Of a stretch of 64,000 nt of DNA, positions 10,301 to 21,300 are shown in pieces. Position 1 is the first letter of the stretch. Every line of letters starts with the position of its first letter. Under the pieces are notes generated by a model. It did not search any database. It had not been told where the DNA came from and worked only from the letters and a program-made list of their open reading frames with translations. Where the stretch lies: the NCBI RefSeq assembly GCF_055900595.2, contig NZ_CM148325.1; one strand, 5' to 3'. The position numbers and the translations under genes are program-made.

Positions 10301-12251
10301 CGGCAATGTACATTTTCACCCGCTGTAACTCCTGGGTGTAACGATCCTGCGGAATACGGCGACCTTCCGCCTGCTGCTTGTGGAACAGATACGCTTCCGC
10401 CAGCTGGTTGATGGCTTCGTTAAGGAACGCCGCGCTGCCCATCGCCGGTTCGCACACGGTGAGGTTTAAGATGGCATCAGCTTTGGCGTGCGGATCGCTA
10501 ATGGGATCAATCTGCTCCTTAAACAGTTCTTTCAGGGCATATTTAACCAGTGAGCGGGTCAGCACTTCCGGGGTGTAATAAGAGGCAGATTTCTCACGGT
10601 CGCGCCCGGCCATACGGTAGATAAAACTGCCTTTGCGGTGAATGCGCAGACTGCCGTCTTTCTCGTAGACCTTCTCGTCTTCGTGGTATTTGCCAATCTC
10701 ATCCTTACTGACGAAGTAACCCGTCTCCAGCTCGTTAAACTCTTCCCCGGCTTTCTTCACCTCGTAGAGATCTTCGCTGGCGAAGAATCCGCGATAGGAA
10801 AGCAGCGCCTCATACACCGCACCTAACTGGTTGATACCCAACTGGCGATAAGAAATACGTCCGCGGCGGTTAAAGCGCCCTTTGCCCGGGCGGCTTAACG
10901 ACATCGCCTGGATAATCTGTTGCAGGGTTTCGTTACGGAATACCACGCGGTTAAGAATGCGGGTGTTGTTGGCATCGAAAAGATGACTTTCCAGACGCGG
11001 GACGCTGAACTGATGACTATGGATGGTGATCCGGTCGCCGCTCTCCAGGTCACTCTGTATTTTCACGCCGCCGTTGTAGCCTTCGCGCACCAGTTTAAAC
11101 AGCATATTCAGGCTGTCGTGGAAGTAGCGCCCGTTGCGATCTTCTTCGCTGGTCAGCGGGATCATCTCCAGATCGCGCAACGTTTCCAGGCTGTAACCTT
11201 GCAGATAGGTTTTGGCGGTCATTGGCGCATAACCCAGCTCCGGGCGCGCTTCAATGTAGAACAGGAACAGCAGGCGGTACATGTAACGCAGACATTCGCG
11301 GCTCAGTTCATCCGGGTCCACCGCACGGTTACCGGTATAGTTTGCCAGGCCACGGTCGATCAGATAATGCATCGCTTCGTTGCCCAGCAGCTCAATACTT
11401 TCGCGCAGGGCATATTTCAGATCTTCCGAAACACCAAACGCATGTTTGTGCGAATTGTCATCCAGCGAGTCAAGATAAGGTGCCCCACTGCCCGGCAGCA
11501 GCGAATCTTTATGTAGCAACACTGCCGTCGCTTTCAGCGTATCCGTTTCACGACGACTTAAAATCTCTTCAAAATCAAAACGTAGCAGACGGTTTTGCGC
11601 CCACTTAGTACGGTCCAACAACAATAGCTGACGGTTACCGAGCAGCAGCACAAAACGCGGCGGTTCATTTTGAGTGAAGACCGCCGTAGAGAGCAGATCC
11701 TGCCAGCTGCGATATTCACCGTTGGCTTTTTTGCGCAGGCTGTCGCGCTTATGTTTGTCGGTATCCGCCGGGAATTGCGCGGTCAGTAAAGAGAGCGCCA
11801 GCGGATCCAGCGTTCCTTCTTCCTGATCGTGTGCTTCAACAATCCACAGCCACGGGCTACCGTCAGTGCTGTTGTAACGCGCCAGTACCGGCAGTGGTGT
11901 ATCGTCATCCAGCATTTGGATCTGCGGCGTAATTTCGTAGCCCAGCGCCTTTAACAATGGCTGCCAGCGATTACGTTGATCGGCCAGACGCTGCGGGATC
12001 TGACGCTGTTTTTCGTGCTCGGCAAGTTTGCGGAAAAACTCAGTCGCCAGACTGTTAAACTGGTTCCACGGAGCGCGGTATCCCGGCTCTACGTCTTTGC
12101 CCTGTTCACGAGCGGCACGCTCCGCTTCACGCGCTGCATTTTCCTGGGCTATCCAGGGTTCCAGCACATCGCGGATATCACTGGTGAATACCTCACCCAA
12201 ATAGTGGTTAGAGTAAAATTCGTTTTCGTTATTAATACCGACCAGCGCCAT
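7329..12251 (-). CDS. Large N6-adenine DNA methyltransferase (Eco57I/type IIG-like gamma class), 1640 aa
   Basis: AdoMet motif I-like VCEPAMGSAAFLNEA; catalytic-type motif GNPPWLK; HCGNSLVG motif; long N- and C-terminal extensions; start 2 nt after upstream stop. Confidence 0.65.
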   Translation of the reverse strand: MALVGINNENEFYSNHYLGEVFTSDIRDVLEPWIAQENAAREAERAAREQGKDVEPGYRAPWNQFNSLATEFFRKLAEHEKQRQIPQRLADQRNRWQPLLKALGYEITPQIQMLDDDTPLPVLARYNSTDGSPWLWIVEAHDQEEGTLDPLALSLLTAQFPADTDKHKRDSLRKKANGEYRSWQDLLSTAVFTQNEPPRFVLLLGNRQLLLLDRTKWAQNRLLRFDFEEILSRRETDTLKATAVLLHKDSLLPGSGAPYLDSLDDNSHKHAFGVSEDLKYALRESIELLGNEAMHYLIDRGLANYTGNRAVDPDELSRECLRYMYRLLFLFYIEARPELGYAPMTAKTYLQGYSLETLRDLEMIPLTSEEDRNGRYFHDSLNMLFKLVREGYNGGVKIQSDLESGDRITIHSHQFSVPRLESHLFDANNTRILNRVVFRNETLQQIIQAMSLSRPGKGRFNRRGRISYRQLGINQLGAVYEALLSYRGFFASEDLYEVKKAGEEFNELETGYFVSKDEIGKYHEDEKVYEKDGSLRIHRKGSFIYRMAGRDREKSASYYTPEVLTRSLVKYALKELFKEQIDPISDPHAKADAILNLTVCEPAMGSAAFLNEAINQLAEAYLFHKQQAEGRRIPQDRYTQELQRVKMYIADNNVFGVDLNPVAVELAEVSLWLNAISGDAFVPWFGYQLHCGNSLVGARRQVFNKSELTYKKAKDPSWLNSEPVELAMNTPREETQIFHFLLPDGGMANYSDKTVKQRYPDDFKALDSWRKEFIKSFAGHEIADVQRISEKVEALWNTYRQQLKAERLKTADSYPVWPAENSEQTRSSLSSKDETFSGRLEDNSAYQKLRWVMDYWCALWFWPIDKADELPDRGTWLFEIETLLDGIVITEKVTEVAEHTTGDLFAEDGLLREESSLFSVAGRLKTEVLFRHLPRLAIVDALRKQHRFFHWDLEFCDLFAERGGFDLMLGNPPWLKVEWQEAGVLGDYEPEFVLRKLSASKLATLRIDTFNQIPALEAAWRSEYEGCEGMQNFLNAQQNYPVLRGVQTNLYKCFLPQAWRLGAEKGVAGFLHPEGIYDDPKGGQLRASVYPRLRAHFQFINETKLFTEVHNQTLFSINVYGPYSQIVAFSNIANLFIPQTIDACFEHKGEGIVPGIKEETEIDGKIKVKWNFQGHFDRVLHVNLKQLGLFSRLYDSAGTTAHEARLPALHATQLVAVLEKFAKQPRRLGDLQGQYYSLEMWHETNQQSDGTIERHTQFPEEASQWVLSGPHFFVGNPFYNTPRAVCDTNKAYDNLELLTLPDDYLPRTNYIPACDAQEYAKRTPRVSWKEQDEDEPRKVTDYYRFVNRRMFGASSERSMISSIVPKHVAHIHPVLSTTFREPINLLSFSAFCHSIVADFYLKTTGRADVYESTLRGFPYVELMSANSRALALNVLTKDYADLWQSCYTPDFNTQRWSRDLPPLPQDFFTNLTPEWQRNCALRSDYSRRQALVEIDVLVAQALGLTLEELLTIYRVQFPVMRQYEADTWYDQNGRIIFTPSKGLVGVGLPRTARKADLKNGFVFNVDSPDWTGGDCTDQAIGWDDVKHLQTGTVSVTFDDYTRSDEGERRTVTWQAPFIKPDREDDYKVAWAFFAQDKESA

Positions 12252-12253
12252 GA

Positions 12254-15112
12254 TTAACCCTCCGCTCCGGTGATAACAGCAATTACCTGAATGTAGGGTT
12301 CTTTTTCAGTCGTCATGGTGTCCTCAATCCATTCGATATAGCTGTCAAAATTGTGTTCGATTTCGCGTTGTCTCTGCTCTTTACGGCTCTGCTTAACTGA
12401 CAATTGCTGTTTGTTATCGGCAAAATCCAGCTCAAGTTGGCTCAACTGCCGCCCACGCAAAACGTCCAGCTTTTGCAGATGCTCATTCAGTTGCTGGTTA
12501 ATGTGCGTTTCAAACGCATTCCGATCATGGATGAATACCTCCCGGGCATGAGCAATAGCCGCTTCCAGTAAATCCTGCTGGCGCTGGTGATTACGATCTT
12601 TACCGCCGCTGTTAGTCAGCTTGTTACTCAACTGCGGATGACGTTGTAAAAACTCAGCGAATGGCTGACTGCCGATTAGCGATTCACGGTTAAAGCTCAC
12701 CACTATCCACGGGTTCACCATCGGATGTGATTTACGGTTCGGGAATAACCCGGAAAGAATGAAGTGATCTTCATCGGGTTCAAGCAGGTATGGCAGACGG
12801 ATAACCGGTGCCTGATGACGACCAAAAGCCGAAGAGATTTTATCGTCCAGCCACTGCACTACCGGGTTGATTTGCCAGAGATACTGCACATCGGGCCAGG
12901 CATGTTGCTCACCGCGAGCGCGTGCAATCGCGTCGGTGATGACGGTTTTATCCTGACTTAAAAAGAGCTGCCAGTTCTCCGGGGCGATTTCAGGCGGTAG
13001 CTGGTTGAAGCGGCGGCGTAACTCCTCCGGTGCCACCAGCGACAAGGTATTATCAGGCAAGGTTTCATACTGGATAGTTTGACCACTGGCTTTCAGGTAA
13101 CCCAATGCTCTTTCACAGTACGCCTGTTCGCTGGCAAACAAGCTGGTGTCTGTTTCGATGACCATTGAGGCATCGCTGGAAACCGCACTGCATATTTCGC
13201 CAAACAGATCGTGTTCGGCGCTTTCCGAGACGTTGCTGTTCAGCAGTTGATCAAACAGGCTGGCACCATCATCCTGCATCATGAACTCTGCAACCTGCTC
13301 TTCTTCCTCTTCCTGGGTAAATTTGCCGGTAAACTCCGAACTGTCCCCAATGTTCTTCTGCGCCTGTTCGTCTTTGTTGATCAACACTTCCAGTACGCGC
13401 ATATCGCCATTGATCTGCGGTTCGCTGGCCTCGGTAAGCAGATAGCGGATTTGAGGCTGATGTTTTTGCCCATAGCGGTCAATACGCCCGTTACGTTGCT
13501 GGAATACCATCAACGACCACGGAATATCAAAGTGAATCATTTTGTGGCTAAGGTGATGCAGGTTGATCCCTTCAGATGCCACATCCGAACAAACCAGAAG
13601 ACGCAACGGCGACTGCGTTTTACCAAAGGCTTCTACGGTTTCCATCAACACCGTATCGCCCTGATCGCCGCGCAGCGTGGCGATCTGATCATCTTTCAAT
13701 TTCAGATCCGCTCGCAGTTGCTGTTCGAGGAACTCCAGCGTTTTAATGCTTTCGGTGAAGATCACCAGGCGATCTTCCGTGTTATTGGCTTTCCAGGCGA
13801 GGTCTTTTCGGATGGTGTCGAGCAGCAACTGGTATTTGCTAAACTGGCTGGCATCAATGTTATTCAGCGCCAACAGCAATGACTCCAGTTCGTTGATCTG
13901 GCTCTGGCTATTATGATCTTTACGGCTCTCAAGACGCTTCAGACGATTAGCCACTACGCTGGCACACGCCATCGGGCTGGAAAATAGCGCTTTTTCGAGG
14001 GTTATCTTGAACAGACGACCTTTGTTAGACTGGGCCTGTTCATCGTCATCATCACGGAACTGACTCTCAACCAGGCGACGGTATGCTTCTTCTTCGGCAC
14101 CGGATGCCAGGCGAGTCAGTTTGACAATATTGCGCTCGGGGAACTCGCCAGACATCTGATCTTTCACGTCTTTTTTGAAGCGACGGACAACCAGATTTTT
14201 ATCGGCAAAGTCGGCGTATTCATACTCTTTCGGGTTGGCGATCGCCGTCGGGTCAAGCATGTTCATCAGGCTGGCAAAACTTTCAGCTTTACCATCATGC
14301 GGCGTTGCTGAAAGCATAATCAGCGTATCGCTGCGCCCGGCGAGCAGTTTTGCCAGTTTACTGCGTAACGAACTGGTTCCACGTTCTGCGACGTTATGGG
14401 CCTCATCAATGACAATAATATCCCACCAGGCATTTTCCAGATGGTGACGATATTCAATATCTTGTTTCAGCGTATCGATGGAGATAATGGTCTTGTCAAA
14501 ATAGTGGAACGGGTTGTGGTTGGTAGGGATGCGGTTACGCACTTTTTGTAAACCAGCAGAATCCAGGCGGGTCAATGGGATCGCAAAACGGCTCCAGAAC
14601 TCCTTCTGGAATTGTGTCAGCATCGATTTAACCGCCAGAACCAGAATACGTTTTCCGCGCCCACGACGGATCAGTTCCGAAACCAGAATACCCGCTTCCA
14701 GCGTTTTACCCAGACCGACAGCGTCGGCAATGAGTATCCGCTGACGCGGTTGTGCCAGCGCCATCCGCGTAGGATCGAGCTGAAACGGCATGGAATCCAT
14801 CGCCGCCAGATGTCCAAAATGGACTTTACTGTCTGTCGGTACGCGTTGGCGTAACTGACTTTCAATATACAACTGTGCCGCCTGATAATTGGCGGATTCA
14901 TCTTCCACCAAATGCGTTTTTGCGGGATCAAGGATCTCTACTTTTTGTTCCAGTTTGGTCAGAAATAACCCTTCTTTACCGCGCACAAGCTCTGAAATAC
15001 CATCGCAGGTCAGCAAATACCCACCATCACCACTGTCATCCGCCCGGCGAATACGCCATTCGGCATCACGAATAACCACCCGCATACCAGGTGCATAATT
15101 TTGCTTATTCAT
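12254..15112 (-). CDS. SNF2-family (SF2) helicase/ATPase, 952 aa
   Basis: Walker A ADAVGLGKT, DEAH box IVIDEAHNV, helicase-C region with QQRNGRIDRYGQ; first gene of the coupled operon. Confidence 0.7.
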   Translation of the reverse strand: MNKQNYAPGMRVVIRDAEWRIRRADDSGDGGYLLTCDGISELVRGKEGLFLTKLEQKVEILDPAKTHLVEDESANYQAAQLYIESQLRQRVPTDSKVHFGHLAAMDSMPFQLDPTRMALAQPRQRILIADAVGLGKTLEAGILVSELIRRGRGKRILVLAVKSMLTQFQKEFWSRFAIPLTRLDSAGLQKVRNRIPTNHNPFHYFDKTIISIDTLKQDIEYRHHLENAWWDIIVIDEAHNVAERGTSSLRSKLAKLLAGRSDTLIMLSATPHDGKAESFASLMNMLDPTAIANPKEYEYADFADKNLVVRRFKKDVKDQMSGEFPERNIVKLTRLASGAEEEAYRRLVESQFRDDDDEQAQSNKGRLFKITLEKALFSSPMACASVVANRLKRLESRKDHNSQSQINELESLLLALNNIDASQFSKYQLLLDTIRKDLAWKANNTEDRLVIFTESIKTLEFLEQQLRADLKLKDDQIATLRGDQGDTVLMETVEAFGKTQSPLRLLVCSDVASEGINLHHLSHKMIHFDIPWSLMVFQQRNGRIDRYGQKHQPQIRYLLTEASEPQINGDMRVLEVLINKDEQAQKNIGDSSEFTGKFTQEEEEEQVAEFMMQDDGASLFDQLLNSNVSESAEHDLFGEICSAVSSDASMVIETDTSLFASEQAYCERALGYLKASGQTIQYETLPDNTLSLVAPEELRRRFNQLPPEIAPENWQLFLSQDKTVITDAIARARGEQHAWPDVQYLWQINPVVQWLDDKISSAFGRHQAPVIRLPYLLEPDEDHFILSGLFPNRKSHPMVNPWIVVSFNRESLIGSQPFAEFLQRHPQLSNKLTNSGGKDRNHQRQQDLLEAAIAHAREVFIHDRNAFETHINQQLNEHLQKLDVLRGRQLSQLELDFADNKQQLSVKQSRKEQRQREIEHNFDSYIEWIEDTMTTEKEPYIQVIAVITGAEG

Positions 15113-15182
15113 CGGTTTTTCTGTCTATTTGGGGCAGTGGCGGTAACGTCATCCTGAAAAATGTGGCGCGGCACACTGCGAT

Positions 15183-15216
15183 AAAAAAGAGGGCCTTAAA
15201 GATATCATGAAGGCCC
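15183..15216 (-). terminator. Putative rho-independent terminator downstream of the DruE-like gene
   Basis: Plus-strand AAAAAA run (15183..15188) followed by hairpin gggcctt / aaggccc (15191..15216); on the minus strand this reads as a stem-loop followed by a T-run. Confidence 0.4.
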
Positions 15217-15335
15217 CCGGCAAAGTGACAAAATGGGAGGGAATGCGCATAATTTGCGCATGATTTTCAAACAAAAATTATTAAAAAGTGAGCTGGGTCA
15301 ACTCCCCTGGAAGATATCCCCAGGGGAGCAATTAT

Positions 15336-18300
15336 TTATCCAGCGATAACATAACTCCTAAGGTCATTACCCGGGGCAACAGCTCGCGCTCGCGTGTTTG
15401 CCAGCCGTTCAACTTGCTGCGGTACTCGCAGAGCAAAATCAAAGAAGGTGTCTTCAATACAGCGCCAGTAGCTAAGCCCCATGTCGAGCAGGACATAATG
15501 CTGACTGCCATCGCTGAAGGTGACTGTCAGTTCTCGTCCATGCTCCGTACTCTGGTTATCCCCCGTTAACCAGCTAATTGCTCCCGGCCACGCAGGCCCC
15601 AGATATCCTTCTTCAAGTAAAGTGGTCACAACCTGCTGACGATCTTCCTCATTAAGCCACGCGTTATAGAGAGCGTTGTGTTGGCGAGAGTTGTAATCCA
15701 ATTTTTTGACGCAAACAGTGAGGCTGGCGCGTTCCGCCATTCCCTGTTCAACCAGCTCGGTTAAGATTTCACCTAACATACGCGCCGTGAATGGGCTATT
15801 AAGATAACGATCGCTGTACTCAACATGCGTTATCTCTTTGTGGCGGGTAAATGCCTGCTTCCAGCCAGCGTGCTGTTGCGTGACTAACGACCAGAAACGC
15901 GAACCAAACCCTTCCAGCGGCCCGTCCAGTTGCTCGCAGAGGTTGATGCGCACCGCCCCGGTGGGTAAGGCGGGCAGTAAATCTTCTGCACTTAAGGTCT
16001 GACCCGAGAAGGTTTTTCCGGACGTTCCTTTAAGTGTCACTACTGGTGAGGACGCACTTTGTCCCCATAATTCACCAGGTGCAACGGTAGCGCTGTCGTC
16101 TGCGGCCCACTGTTGGCTTTGCCCTTCGCGAGTCACCTGCGCAAGCCAGCGCCCCTTTCCTTGCATGAGTTGCGCAGTGGCAATGGATTTCACTTGTAAG
16201 CGTCCTCCCGGCATCGCCGCCAACGCGGAAAGCTGATGTCTGGAGCTATCAGTTAAGTTTTCCAGCGGCGTGGCCACCAGCAACTCAACATTCCCACCGG
16301 AGGAGGCAAACTGGAGCAACTCTTTAAATAATGGCCATTGGGCAAAGTCCCACTGTTCCTGCGGCCCCGCAAGAACCAGCGAGCAGGAGTCATAAATCTC
16401 GCTGTTCAGGCATTGCGCAATACGTAAACTCAGAGGGTTAGTTTCAACCCGGCTACCATCGACGAAGTACTGATATTCTGGCGCGAGGTTAAGTCGCTGC
16501 AACCGTACATTGGTAAGCAGGGTTAATGCATGGTGACGATCTAATCTGTTGACATAATGCTGACTGTCGTAGCTGAGCAAGCAGTGGTGACAGAATTTAT
16601 CGCAACTGCAATCGAGCAATTTTCTGGCGTAATTAAAGACATCAGCCCAATGGTCGATCAATTGCACTGCATAACCTGCACCACCCGCATTATTGTCGTA
16701 AATGAAGATGGAATATCCGGTATAGCCATTGATATCGCGCGCTTGCTGCGTCGTCACGCCCAGCTCAGTATTTTCGATACCCAATTTATGCGCTAACCCT
16801 TCACGCAAAGCGACCGCAAGGGAACGCGCGGCAACCTCATCACGGATCAACAGGCCATTATCATCATTGAGTTGCAGCTCAACCATATCTGTACGACTGC
16901 TATACCCCAACCACAGATCTTTATGCACATGACCGTGGCACAATTTATTGCTCCCCTGACGATCGTTACTGCCCCCTCGCAACAGGTAATGCGTATTTTC
17001 CCGCTCTGGGTTCTTTAGATTTTCAGGGGTACGCTGGGGTTGAGTTTGAGATTCTGCCCGACCACATGAGAGGCAAATTGCGTAGCCGTGCCCAAATTCC
17101 CCTTCACTGAAGTGGAACAATTCCCCACTATGGCTAAAACGGTAACGTCCTAGCCCAGCATCGGGTAAAGAAACCCACACCGAAGACGGTACAAGAACAC
17201 GTGGATCTTTCCAGGGAAGTTGTGCAGGCATGGATACATCATTATGTGCCTGATAACGAATATCTGTCGCAAAACCAACAGGCTGTAAATAACGCTTCAC
17301 ATCAAGTTGCTGTATATCCGCTTTGCAGTGACTACATTCGACAGGATGGGTAGCACTGGTTGCCCCCGCACCACATTTACGGCAATGCCAGAACCACGGA
17401 ATATGATGATCGCCTGACAGCTCCTGCCCGCTGGCAAGTACCTTGCCAAGCATAATGCCCGAGGAACGATATACTTTTCCGCCCAATACCACATCTGCAC
17501 CAGGCGCATACTCGCGTAATGCTGTAGGTAGATCACGGCAGGGCAATTTTTCAATACGACGAGAAAAGCTTTCTCCCCCTTCATTAGGGTCAGCCTGAGT
17601 AGCTTTTATTGCGCGACGTTTTTCCAGCTCATCTGCCGTCAGATAATTGAAATTGACGACACCAACCGGGAAACCATGCCCTGGCAGGAACGCTTCACTA
17701 ATGAGTTTAGAAAACAGATATGCACCGCGATAATCACGAAGCTGATAAGCGATGGCTTTACCTGCTGGCGTTTCTTCCCACGCGCTGTTATCCGCTTTCA
17801 ACGCTTCGATATTTTCCAACAGTATCGCAAGTTGGCTTCTCCAGCGGATATCAACCTGCTGCATCATTGCTTGTGTGCGGGTCAAGAGCTGGGTTGCCGT
17901 CAATGACATCAGGACGGTTCCCTGAGTAAGGCGTTTAAGTTTATCCGCCAGCTGATCGGCCTGGTTATTTAACCAATGGAGAAAACGAAGACACTGGCTC
18001 TCATCACCTTCAAAGAACCATTTGCAACTCAGTTTTGTCGCATCAGGAACTTCAGCTCGTAAAAACAGACCTAAAACCAGGGCATTAACATGTCGTTGAA
18101 CAATACTGCTGCTCCCAAAACGAACCCGTGGCGCACTGGCAGTAGTGTTGAACGCCCAGAGGGGGTCTTTGAATACCTCCATTCCATGCGCCGTGTTTTT
18201 ACATAACGTAATGGCAGCAGATGCACTCTCTCCACGTCGACCCGCGCGGCCTGCACGCTGCAAATAATTTGCCGGAGCTGGAGGAACGTTGTTCATTGCC

Positions 18301-21300
18301 ACCAAACTCATACCACCAATGTCCACCCCCATCTCCATGGTCGTGGAGCAGTTCAGCACATTAACTTTGCCTGACTTAAATTGTTTTTCATTAAACTGGT
18401 TCTGCTCAGGCGTTCTCTGCGCAGAGTGTTCCTCCAGACGATACCAGCTATCTTTCAGGGCCAGTCGGTCGCTGCGAGTAGACCATAATCCTTCCTCGCG
18501 GGCATGTTGAATCAGCGCATTACTTTCCAGCCACTCCAGGCGTTCTTCTCGGGCGATTTCTCCACCACCAGACAAACGCCAGTGACGTACAGGAAGCTCA
18601 GGCATTTCAATCAACACTGCTTTTTCAGGTGCAATTTCTTTGCTACCCGGCAAATACGGAGAGTATCCCAGCAACGTGACGTCTAACGCACGTCGAGTAT
18701 AGGGGCAACGCCACACTTGCTTTGGACTGTAAAATTCAGCCTGTTGTTTAATATCCAGCTGATAACCCGACTCAAACTGACGTAAGCAGGGTCGAATTGC
18801 ATCCCAGACCTCAATCATTAAGTGGTTAACTAACGATTTCCAGTGAGCCTGCTCAGGTTGTATTGCCGGAAAGACTGCAATTAATAGCTTAATGACCCGG
18901 TTATAATGGCGATCGCGTATTTGTGGCCAAAGTTGATCACGTTTCTGCCCTTTGTTTTTTTTATCTGGACCCTGGAGCATTTTTACCGGGAAACGAGCCC
19001 CCATCCAGCGAGGGTATTGCTCGTTTTCGTAAAAAACGGCACTGTTTTCACGTATAAAGAAATCAAGAGTAATCTTCAATAAATTACGCCATTCCGCTAA
19101 TTGCTTATCGGGATCGGGTAATAATGTCTTCCAGTCCTGCGGGCAGGTTGTAACTTTATCAATAAATGGATAGTGAATGGCTACCAGACCCAGACTTTCG
19201 AGGGTCCAGGCATTTTTAGGGCGGCGACCAAATTCACTGTATAAACAAAAATCTGCAAACTGTTGTTTAGTAAGATCAAGCCCAGACAATTCTTTAAAAC
19301 TGCCTCTCATTCTATCGGCAAGGTCCACACTGCCAACCAGCTGTTCAGACAGTGTTTGCCATGACATGGTTTTCTTCTGCTGATTGCCAGAGTTAGCCTG
19401 GAGTATTTGCATCGCTTCAGCATGATCCGGGCTTAAGGAACTCACCATCGGCTCGATAATTTTAAGTGCCTGAATGTCCGCCGGGCTAAGCTCTTCATTA
19501 GCAACCATCGATTTTTTCAGCGCGTCAATAGAGTTTTTTAAAGGAAGGATAGAAAACTGGGCAATAAAACTCTCTAACAATGCGCAGTGTGCCGGGCTGA
19601 GCTTTGCTGATGGCTCATTAATATTGGCCAACTCCTGGTAGCAAAGAGCTCGCAACGTCGCTTTATCGGCATCCTGCTGTAAGCGGGCAGAAATGCGGGC
19701 AGTGCCCTGACGTGAATCCGTAAAGGTGAGCAGACGTCGACCATTAAACGGTCCTAACTGCTCTTCTCTTGTCTGCGGTAATGGTGAAAACTCCAGCAGA
19801 GTAGGAATAATTTCATTTAAAAAAAAGGGCGCGCCAAGTCGAAGCGGACGGAATAAAGGATTATTTTTTCGTTGGGTGTCACCACAGCAAACACAAGCAA
19901 AGGAATTATTACGTCCCTCACCTCGAGATTCCGGTCTTAACAGGTTTATTTCATAGTGCTTTTGCGCTTCACTATCAATTTTCCCCGCCGTCGTTTCTTC
20001 CAGTGAAATGATATATTTTTCACCATCGCTCGCAATCAGACGATCAAATTGAGAGTTATTGTCTAATTCGTCGTTGTCTTCATCTTCAGAATAAACATCT
20101 ACATCAAGAGCAAACTCATCCACTTCGGCAGCGGCGGGTTGCGCTACCAACCAGTTCGTTCCATCACCGCGCATCTCCTCTTTGGCAGACAAATAAGCTG
20201 AACCACACCCGGAGCAACGTAAAACTTCAAATACCGGCGCACCACAGTCACAATATTGGCGCTGCTCAAACCATACCTGACCAAATGGCCAGTCACTCTG
20301 ATTTAATTCATGTGCTTTATGTGAGCATTGTTTGTTTGAACATGCCCATAGACCCGCCAGTGTTCTGATAAATCCATGCATACGTAATGGCGTAAAAGCC
20401 AGTTCACCTTCTCGCGATCTTGCCATTAGATCGAGGAGTTGCAGTAGCTCACGGTGATTAATATCTGGCCAGGTTCTTCTGGCAACATTGAGCAACTCAC
20501 TCAAACGTACTGCCTGCCGTCCGGGATGAGTTAACGCCTGACGCAATTGCTGGGCCACACGGTAATGACAAAGCTGTTGGTAAAGATCCTGAGGGCTCAG
20601 AGATTTAAGAGAAGTTAAAGATGTGGGGTATTCATGACGAATCAGCGACTCCGATACCCGCGGTATTTGTCGATAGCCGCGAACCACTTTGACATCACGT
20701 TCTGTAACGCCCGCAAGATCAGCGACAAATTTAGCAAGCTCCTTATTACCTTCAGGAGAGTCTTCACCAATAGTGGCAGAGGTCGCGATAATCTGCACAG
20801 GTTTATCTGTGCCAGGTCCAACATTGAAAGCCTGCATAACACGACGTAAAAGCAGCGCTAACTCAGCAGCCTGAGAACCAATATAACTATGGGCTTCATC
20901 CAGGACGATATACTTTAACATCCCCTGAGACTTTTCGATGATTGGGGCATCTTTACGACGAATCAGCATATATTCCAGCATGGTGGTATTCGTCACCATG
21001 ATGGAAGGTGGTGCTTCGTAAATGGCTTCCCGACTCAAAGCTTGTTCAGGTACTTTCAACTGATCTTCCTGAACTTCGTATTTGGTATGCCGGGTTTCGC
21101 CATTATATAGCGCGAAGCGTATTTTCCCCTTAAATCCGCGCGTCCATTCGCGAAGCCGCTCCTGTTGGCTGTTAATTAATGCATTTAACGGATACAAGAA
21201 AATAGCTTGTGTCCCTGTTAGTGACTGACGGGTCGATTTTTGCTGACGAATAAGATCTTCCAGGACCGGTACCATAAAGCATTCTGTTTTCCCGGATCCC

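Follow-up and report, generated by a model that had tools for sequence, protein, structure and literature searches.

The closest described counterpart of the locus analysed here is the Zorya II–Druantia III–ARMADA II island of Escherichia coli (O-island 172 of O157:H7; PMC12458937, Fig. 4). Its ARMADA type II operon, armABCD, has been published (PMC12458937; bioRxiv 10.1101/2025.09.22.677730), ArmA has been named in E. coli ATCC 8739 itself (PMC12458937), and the synergy of Druantia III with ARMADA II has also been reported. How the spacer that separates them is built is not described in the Druantia and ARMADA papers searched by keyword, where neither 'intergenic' nor 'terminator' occurs. In the same search, 'promoter' referred to vector promoters and to ARMADA cloned under 'native promoters', and to nothing else. 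Whether the two systems are co-transcribed or separately controlled matters for the interpretation of deletion mutants and of single-system clones.

Several kinds of RNA hairpin are established in bacterial mRNAs. REP-type hairpins and the stem-loops at trimmed 3' ends of Rho-terminated transcripts are stabilising mRNA stem-loops. The ompA-type 5' hairpin and fourU-type thermometers are 5'-UTR elements that affect mRNA stability or translation.

Genomic context

The window, a stretch of 64,000 nucleotides from contig NZ_CM148325.1 (assembly GCF_055900595.2), holds the published island's locus from the same strain: a 1.1-kb query that runs from druE across the spacer into armA matches NC_010468, the genome of the published island, with 100% identity. 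On the E. coli ATCC 8739 chromosome, the minus strand carries druH, druE, the spacer and armABCD. RefSeq also annotates a Zorya II operon here, in divergent orientation.

The initial annotation had proposed a Druantia III-like pair upstream of the spacer, and PADLOC bears this out. The druH gene (25009..21650, minus strand) matches DruH with 2544 bits, and druE (21659..15336, minus strand; WP_000383121.1), which encodes the Druantia type III helicase-nuclease, matches DruE3 with 2173 bits. Pfam assigns DEAD, Helicase_C and MZB domains to DruE, and an NCBIfam YjiT_fam match of 988 bits also falls within the pair. The two genes thus show the Druantia type III arrangement of an adjacent, co-directional DruH and a YprA-like DruE with an MZB/DUF1998 domain. 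The druE stop codon, TAA, occupies 15338..15336 on the minus strand.

The SNF2-led operon downstream, which had been taken for a separate system, is indeed one and is the published ARMADA type II. Its first gene, armA (15112..12254, minus strand), encodes a 952-aa SNF2 or BrxHII-like helicase with a Pfam SNF2-rel_dom and a PADLOC match to DrmD (332 bits). It is followed, in order, by genes for a 1640-aa methyltransferase and a 2113-aa DruE-like helicase and by a UvrD-like gene that crosses the window edge. PADLOC and Pfam together describe a DISARM-like set here, composed of a DrmD-like SNF2 protein, a type IIG-like methyltransferase and a DruE-like helicase. Domain matches, together with the RefSeq annotation, reproduce the gene order of ARMADA type II: SNF2/BrxHII-like helicase, PglX-like methyltransferase, YprA-like helicase-nuclease and GajB-like UvrD helicase.

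Since the druE TAA ends at 15336 and the armA ATG begins at 15112, the spacer measures 223 bp (15335..15113, minus strand), the distance first given for these co-oriented systems. Two hairpins had been noticed within it. Both are real, their coordinates were correct to within 1-2 nt, and the T-run does lie on the minus strand, which is also the coding strand of both stems. Below, hairpin 1 is the one next to druE and hairpin 2 the one with the T-run. The spacer as a whole folds with z = -3.71, and 1 of 200 shuffled sequences folds as well. An Rfam 15 scan of the spacer returned no match at gathering score; the best was to suhB/mmgR over 15176..15266, which scored 23.4 bits (E 0.023) where the family's gathering score is 41. 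The C/G ratio in the spacer, 1.3-1.9, is only weakly suggestive of a Rho utilisation signal.

Distribution and conservation of the spacer

We distinguish three spacer types: A, that of E. coli; B, that of Siccibacter; and C, that of Yersinia. Type A is found in approximately 527 of 5426 complete E. coli genomes, and of the 528 E. coli records that match the 1.1-kb query spanning druE, spacer and armA, all but one (527) cover at least 80% of it. The spacer is single-copy per genome in 534 of the 5426. Seven E. coli genomes carry a copy that is 74% identical; in one of these, 1218KP, the copy follows a pair of genes encoding 1569 and 743 aa, and hairpin 1 is present with compensatory changes.

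A scan of one genome per species for the motif adjoining hairpin 1 gave five further loci. The order is druE, spacer, armA in Siccibacter and Escherichia sp. E1V33, and 743-aa gene, spacer, armA in Mangrovibacter, Enterobacter wuhouensis and Citrobacter sp. FP75. Among the contexts of ArmA homologues, those of Yersinia, Pectobacterium and Serratia comprise DruH, DruE, a 223-nt spacer and armA. In Pantoea and Aeromonas, armA stands beside divergent neighbours without Druantia, and the Shewanella and Vibrio armA contexts show no homology to the spacer. A metagenome scan that used the first armA codons alone, and was therefore blind to the spacer, yielded 45 loci. Scans of viral contigs with the armA start and with the leader block gave no matches.

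The gene pair encoding 1569 and 743 aa is uncharacterised. In other genera it takes the place of Druantia III before the same spacer, and neither similarity to DruH or DruE nor membership of any family was found for it.

The spacer is exactly 223 nt long in three diverged enterobacterial lineages. Its identity between E. coli and Yersinia is 63%, and between E. coli and Siccibacter 78%. The third codon positions of armA are less conserved than this (47% for Yersinia and 65% for Siccibacter, each against E. coli), and the conservation of the spacer is close to that of the druE 3' end. The junction is ordinary in kind but well conserved.

Two smaller elements lie between the features described below. 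Directly 3' of hairpin 1 is a conserved box, TGACCCAGCTCACT (15287..15300, minus strand; alignments A1, A2 and A5), whose Yersinia-type form is TGACGAAGCGCACT and whose TGAC is invariant (alignment A3). The minimum-free-energy fold also contains an imperfect palindrome or hairpin, AUGCGCA-AAUUA-UGCGCAU (15243..15261, minus strand). It is limited to the E. coli and Siccibacter-type lineages, type B keeping part of it through G.U pairing and type C having none, and it is missing from the RNAalifold output.

A covarying hairpin past the druE stop codon

Hairpin 1 (15301..15329, minus-strand RNA) begins 6 nt past the druE stop codon. It has a 9-bp core, extended to 12 bp by G.U pairs, with the arms CUCCCCUGG (15328..15320) and CCAGGGGAG (15310..15302) and the loop AUAUC. 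Its folding energy is -21.2 kcal/mol (z = -4.08), which none of 200 shuffled sequences matches.

Three sequence classes of this hairpin occupy one position, -217..-189 from the armA ATG. The arms are CTCCCCTGG and CCAGGGGAG in the E. coli type, CTCCCCCAC and GTGGGGGAG in the Siccibacter type, and CCCCCCTGCC and GGCAGGGGGG in that of Yersinia. Among 16 distinct variants, paired cells make up 95.5% of the total, and both sides have changed in 5 of 10 pairs. The covariation score of 0.483 compares with 0.264 +/- 0.027 in shuffles, none of 500 reaching it, and controls with slid partners score 0.11-0.23, all below the observed value. RNAalifold, run on 12 full spacers from the three types, recovers hairpin 1 independently; it returns only one other helix, the leader stem described below. 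At the eight outer variable pairs, all seven one-sided changes are C-to-U and give U.G pairs, and three of these changes are found together in a single variant, L047. Such U.G pairs are tolerated only in minus-strand RNA, which argues that the hairpin functions on that strand.

The hairpin travels with the upstream genes. In L029, a diverged DruH-DruE-armA locus, an unrelated perfect 11-bp hairpin lies just past the druE stop, and in E. coli A1_136, where the 1569/743-aa pair (NZ_CP040390, 4558567..4565504) occurs without ARMADA, hairpin 1 is still present. Pantoea and Aeromonas, in which no gene upstream of armA shares its direction, do not have it. Hairpin 1 thus follows whichever co-directional gene precedes armA, which indicates that it belongs to the 3' end of the upstream operon.

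After the stem, UUGACCCAGCUCAC intervenes before the first U-run, and type C has no U-run at all; no lineage has a U-tract directly after the hairpin. Hairpin 1 is therefore conserved but differs from canonical intrinsic terminators, in which a U-tract directly follows the stem, and strong intrinsic termination at this site is doubtful. It is closer to 3'-terminal or intercistronic stabilising stem-loops: likewise GC-rich and stable, located just past the last stop codon, with compensatory changes and without a U-tract. REP-type hairpins are dispersed repeats, whereas hairpin 1 is present in one copy per genome, which rules out an origin from a REP-like repeat. From its position and covariation in the compared sequences, we infer that hairpin 1 defines or stabilises the 3' end of the upstream operon.

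A terminator-like hairpin in the E. coli lineage

Hairpin 2 and its U6 tract span 15183..15218 on the minus strand. The 9-bp stem, with arms GGGGGCCUU (15218..15210) and AAGGCCCUC (15197..15189), contains six G-C pairs and encloses a 12-nt loop; U6 occupies 15188..15183. The hairpin has a folding energy of -15.1 kcal/mol (z = -2.28), and 5 of 200 shuffled sequences fold as well.

Like Rho-independent terminators, hairpin 2 lies downstream of a stop codon and has a GC-rich 9-bp stem that runs directly into U6 on the coding strand. It differs from them in its loop, which at 12 nt exceeds the typical 3-8 nt and contains a candidate -10 element, and in a stem that is not conserved beyond the E. 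coli lineage. A terminator consensus scan that allowed loops of up to 8 nt missed it. A strong stem is confined to the E. coli type and one recombinant, L044, where a G.U pair is improved to A-U. Type B has a weak stem of about 4 bp, and none was found in type C or in Pantoea, Aeromonas, L020 or L055. Hairpin 2 is not part of the RNAalifold consensus and is not kept in orthologous spacers. The T-run itself belongs to an invariant block, CTTTTTTATCGCAGT.

The description of this element as a terminator-like hairpin with a T-run stands for the 9-bp stem and U6 on the coding strand, with the restriction that the stem is specific to the E. coli lineage. Judged by the spacers compared, hairpin 2 is peculiar to the E. 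coli type and is not a conserved terminator.

Candidate promoter and leader of armABCD

The loop of hairpin 2 contains a candidate extended -10 element, TGaTATCTT (15199..15207, minus strand). Its TG (-15/-14), A(-11) and T(-7) do not vary among 27 unique leaders, distant lineages included. As in extended -10 (TGn) sigma-70 promoters, these positions are kept and no usable -35 accompanies them; there is no good -35 at the correct spacing. The candidate differs from such promoters in its poor hexamer (TATCTT here, TACCCT or TACTCT in other leaders) and in having a start that is predicted only. Promoter prediction, which had been put forward as a check on this region, made a single call on the minus strand, TTGTCA-16-CATGAT (9/12). 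This call overlaps TGaTATCTT but is offset from it. TGaTATCTT is probably the extended -10 of armABCD, with a predicted start at about 15192 (15195..15191), inside the 3' arm of hairpin 2. In strain EDL933 (NZ_CP008957), positions of about 5422577..5422597 correspond to 15200..15180 of the window.

Next comes the invariant block CTCTTTTTTATCGCAGTG (15174..15191, minus strand), which occurs once in the window; hairpin 2 takes its T-run from this block, and a leader stem its 5' arm. From the block to the ATG there are exactly 62 nt in each of the three main types, whereas a few distant types have 63-75 nt. The block is present in every locus with enough upstream DNA that was retrieved by the armA start alone, a search blind to the spacer.

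The predicted armA 5' UTR contains a stem-loop, S3 (15134..15179, minus strand), with an outer stem of GCAGUGUG and CG.CACUGC and a variable interior. This is the second of the two helices returned by RNAalifold (15179..15134), in which 3 of 11 pairs have changed on both sides. In 16 variants, among them those of Aeromonas, L020 and L029, pairing of the outer 6 positions is complete (100%). Because the stem is mostly invariant, it provides modest covariation, and the folding energy of the leader does not stand out (z = -1.25 for 15113..15180). Immediately ahead of the armA ATG lies an A-rich invariant translation-initiation region, AGACAGAAAAACCG (15113..15126, minus strand; from alignments), with no Shine-Dalgarno sequence. 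The U-rich block is complementary to the AUG region at 10 of 11 positions and 93% paired. Both sides are nearly invariant and show no covariation, so this pairing is best regarded as a possibility.

The armA leader resembles ompA-type and fourU-type 5'-UTR stem-loops in placing a conserved stem between the predicted start and an AUG without a Shine-Dalgarno sequence, a likeness that we take as a lead only. It differs from these elements in that the U-block/AUG pairing shows no covariation and the leader matches no Rfam family. A regulatory role of the leader may be suspected. The proximal half of the spacer, comprising the -10 motif and the leader, accompanies armA even where Druantia is not upstream (Pantoea, Aeromonas), and no motif is common to the druH upstream region and the armA leader.

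The published constructs bear on this region. Primer FN1701 opens the ARMADA amplicon at ATAATTGCTCCCCTGGGGATATC, which corresponds to window position 15335, the first base past the druE stop. The resulting plasmid, pARMADA (in pBeloBAC11), carries the exact 223-bp spacer and armABCD, is described by its authors as under 'native promoters', and protected against 13 phages. From the primer tails and the lacZ-alpha region of pBeloBAC11, the insert is presumably antisense to Plac. Some vector-derived transcription into the insert is possible. As ARMADA was cloned with exactly this spacer and is active, the spacer very likely carries armABCD's own promoter. The published Druantia deletion strains retain the whole spacer and the druH promoter. 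ARMADA activity in these druHE deletions consequently says nothing on read-through.

Discussion

The spacer anatomy described here is new relative to the Druantia and ARMADA literature searched: a covarying 3' hairpin, a conserved candidate -10 and leader stem, a lineage-specific terminator-like hairpin that wraps the -10, and a swappable upstream module. We propose, with a probability of about 0.6, that the spacer is a composite junction of two separately expressed transcription units. Hairpin 1 would form in the druHE transcript and mark or protect its 3' end; as it lacks a U-tract, druHE termination would probably be Rho-dependent or lie further downstream. The proximal ~110 nt would be ARMADA II's own control region, with the extended -10 TGaTATCTT (15207..15199), a start near 15192 and a leader of ~80 nt. 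This leader would open with the invariant U-rich block, continue with the stem-loop at 15179..15134 and end in the A-rich start region, which lacks a Shine-Dalgarno sequence. A GC stem would have arisen around the -10, beside the conserved T-run, in the E. coli lineage alone, giving a hairpin like an intrinsic terminator. Since armA transcripts would start within its 3' arm, hairpin 2 would form only in RNA arriving from upstream. It could then stop druHE read-through while sparing armA mRNA, a selective termination that we consider conceivable for E. coli.

The main competing account is that druH, druE and armABCD, five to six genes, approximate one operon, with read-through from the druH promoter and the hairpins acting as processing or stability elements that set relative levels. 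The genes are co-directional, 527 of the 528 E. coli genomes that match keep their junction intact, the 223-nt length is held in three diverged lineages, and the published synergy would suit joint expression. The lack of a U-tract after hairpin 1 in every lineage and the loss of hairpin 2 outside E. coli point the same way. Yet cloned armABCD is active with the spacer alone, the proximal spacer and its -10-like motif are kept before armA in Druantia-free genomes, and the E. coli type has a canonical stem and U6 on the coding strand; we therefore regard a single operon as unlikely. The read-through or shared regulation that the initial annotation had called plausible thus finds no positive support, although some read-through is conceivable, above all in lineages that lack hairpin 2. 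The leader and -10 conserved with armA, the active clone and the lack of a motif shared with druH lean towards independent expression of armABCD. A further account would place the function of hairpin 1 in DNA, as a recombination or cassette-exchange site for defence modules upstream of ARMADA II. Two unrelated modules, DruHE and the 1569/743-aa pair, do end at the same hairpin, the shared sequence starts at most 7 nt before it, and in E. coli LS4 the homology breaks inside its loop. Ordinary homologous recombination in conserved flanks fits these breakpoints equally well, however, and no recombinase is associated with the hairpin. The C-to-U changes on the coding strand keep G.U pairs in RNA, whereas the other DNA strand, or a cruciform, would have A.C mismatches at these positions, and the unrelated hairpin of L029 at the same position fits a function at the transcript end, which makes an exchange site very improbable.

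The spacer might instead encode a small RNA, either on the minus strand, from TTGACC at 15300 to hairpin 2, or on the plus strand, from GTGACA-17-CATAAT (15225..15253) to hairpin 1. The plus-strand element is the best sigma-70-like match of the region (10/12), an invariant TTGAC lies directly 3' of hairpin 1 with, in type B, a TATCGT hexamer 16 nt downstream, and the weak suhB match over 15176..15266 is to an sRNA-like family. That match, at 23.4 bits, is far under its gathering score of 41, though, and the interior of the putative RNA is the least conserved part of the spacer. We reject the plus-strand version because types B and C do not keep its promoter hexamers and because the U.G changes point to the minus strand and would break a plus-strand hairpin 1. 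The distal minus-strand promoter at TTGACC was likewise discarded, as it has a plausible -10 in type B only, and the supposed terminator, hairpin 2, exists only in E. coli. A small RNA is thus highly improbable on either strand. Attenuation at hairpin 2 under translation of a leader peptide is hardly credible. The 18-codon ORF MRKLCAFPPILSLCRGPS (ATG at 15261) ends at a TGA in the hairpin 2 loop, where a ribosome would cover the 5' arm, but its start is lost (ATA) in Mangrovibacter/L009 and in E. coli 1218KP, type B has 13 codons and another stop, and type C has no ORF. The ORF also lacks a Shine-Dalgarno sequence and hairpin 2 is itself lineage-specific, so that neither the peptide nor the terminator is conserved, and we rejected this candidate.

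Returning to the two-unit reading, a wider interpretation is that the spacer is a conserved 'docking' junction of ARMADA II. The proximal regulatory leader would act post-initiation, the distal hairpin would mark a slot for partner systems, and the 1569/743-aa pair would be an undescribed anti-phage system that cooperates with ARMADA II in the manner of Druantia III. We offer this as speculation and hold it with rather low confidence.

For groups studying this island, the anatomy is of practical value in that it gives concrete coordinates on the spacer. The comparisons suggest that the 223-bp spacer includes a conserved promoter and leader belonging to ARMADA II itself, and a conserved RNA hairpin appears to close off the system upstream. 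The uncharacterised pair in the Druantia slot may be a more interesting lead than the junction itself.

Length and internal features of the druE–armA spacer

The spacer between druE and armA is exactly 223 nt long in three lineages (window 15113..15335; comparison loci L008, 9497..9719, and L012, L015, L017, 8778..9000). The three sequences are just 58-78% identical, and their alignment takes 26-40 gap columns. The distance from hairpin 1, which follows the druE stop codon, to the armA ATG is also identical across all three. The constant length possibly reflects a spacing constraint.

A box, TGACCCAGCTCACT, adjoins hairpin 1 on its 3' side (window 15287..15300, minus strand). It is kept in every spacer type and reads TGACGAAGCGCACT in the Yersinia type. 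Its TTGAC resembles a -35 element, and a plausible -10 element at 16 nt occurs in the Siccibacter type only. The spacer's best sigma-70-like match, GTGACA-17-CATAAT (10/12; window 15225..15253, plus strand), lies in antisense orientation, pointing to druE, and is not conserved in the remaining spacer types. Outside the spacer, the divergent zorA2-druH control region (window 25010..25220) is AT-rich and carries promoter-like matches on both strands, with five found versus 1.1 expected.

Hairpins 1 and 2 of the E. coli type share the 8-mer GATATCTT in their loops (window 15311..15318 and 15199..15206). It contains an EcoRV site, and CCT...AGG flanks both copies. The repeat could be a trace of copying between the two hairpins, or it may mean nothing, because about 0.4 repeated 8-mers are expected by chance in 223 nt. 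An 18-codon ORF, MRKLCAFPPILSLCRGPS, lies on the minus strand (window 15205..15261), and its TGA stop codon falls in the loop of hairpin 2. This is probably not a gene, since the start codon is replaced by ATA in two relatives.

Altered and distant loci

E. coli CT29 (L003, 724..1223) has an intact spacer and an intact armA, while its druE annotation is that of a truncated pseudogene. Each hairpin has a weakening substitution in this strain: hairpin 1 reads GGAG in place of GGGG, and hairpin 2 reads GGGAG in place of GGGGG. In E. coli LS4 (L006, ~12000..12060), homology to the spacer, 3' of a 743-aa gene described below, ends within the loop of hairpin 1. The hairpin keeps its 5' arm and has other sequence in place of its 3' arm, which therefore puts a rearrangement breakpoint inside it.

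Shewanella indica (L016, 8582..9004) and Vibrio furnissii (L021) carry more distant ARMADA II loci whose upstream arrangement differs. The leader block, the invariant U-rich element before the armA start codon, is absent from both. The Shewanella locus has a 140-aa ORF overlapping the start of armA, and in both Shewanella and Aeromonas armB and armC are separated by an additional UvrD-like gene.

A two-gene module in the position of Druantia III

Immediately 5' of the same spacer and armA, a two-gene module encoding proteins of ~1569 and ~743 aa replaces Druantia III. It was located in E. coli 1218KP (L002, 12237..19174) and in seven further comparison loci (L005, L006, L007, L009, L010, L030, and L042). 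Hosts of the module together with the spacer and armA include Mangrovibacter, Enterobacter wuhouensis, Citrobacter sp. FP75, and metagenome contigs. About 130 further E. coli genomes also contain a match to the 743-aa gene at its 3' end, with 80-95% identity. The two inspected among these, A1_136 and LS4, carry the pair without ARMADA, in a setting of fim/nan or integrase remnants. Neither protein resembles DruH or DruE, and searches of Pfam, PADLOC, NCBIfam, PHROGs, and PDB sequences returned no match. We consider the pair a candidate for an undescribed defence system or for a partner of ARMADA.
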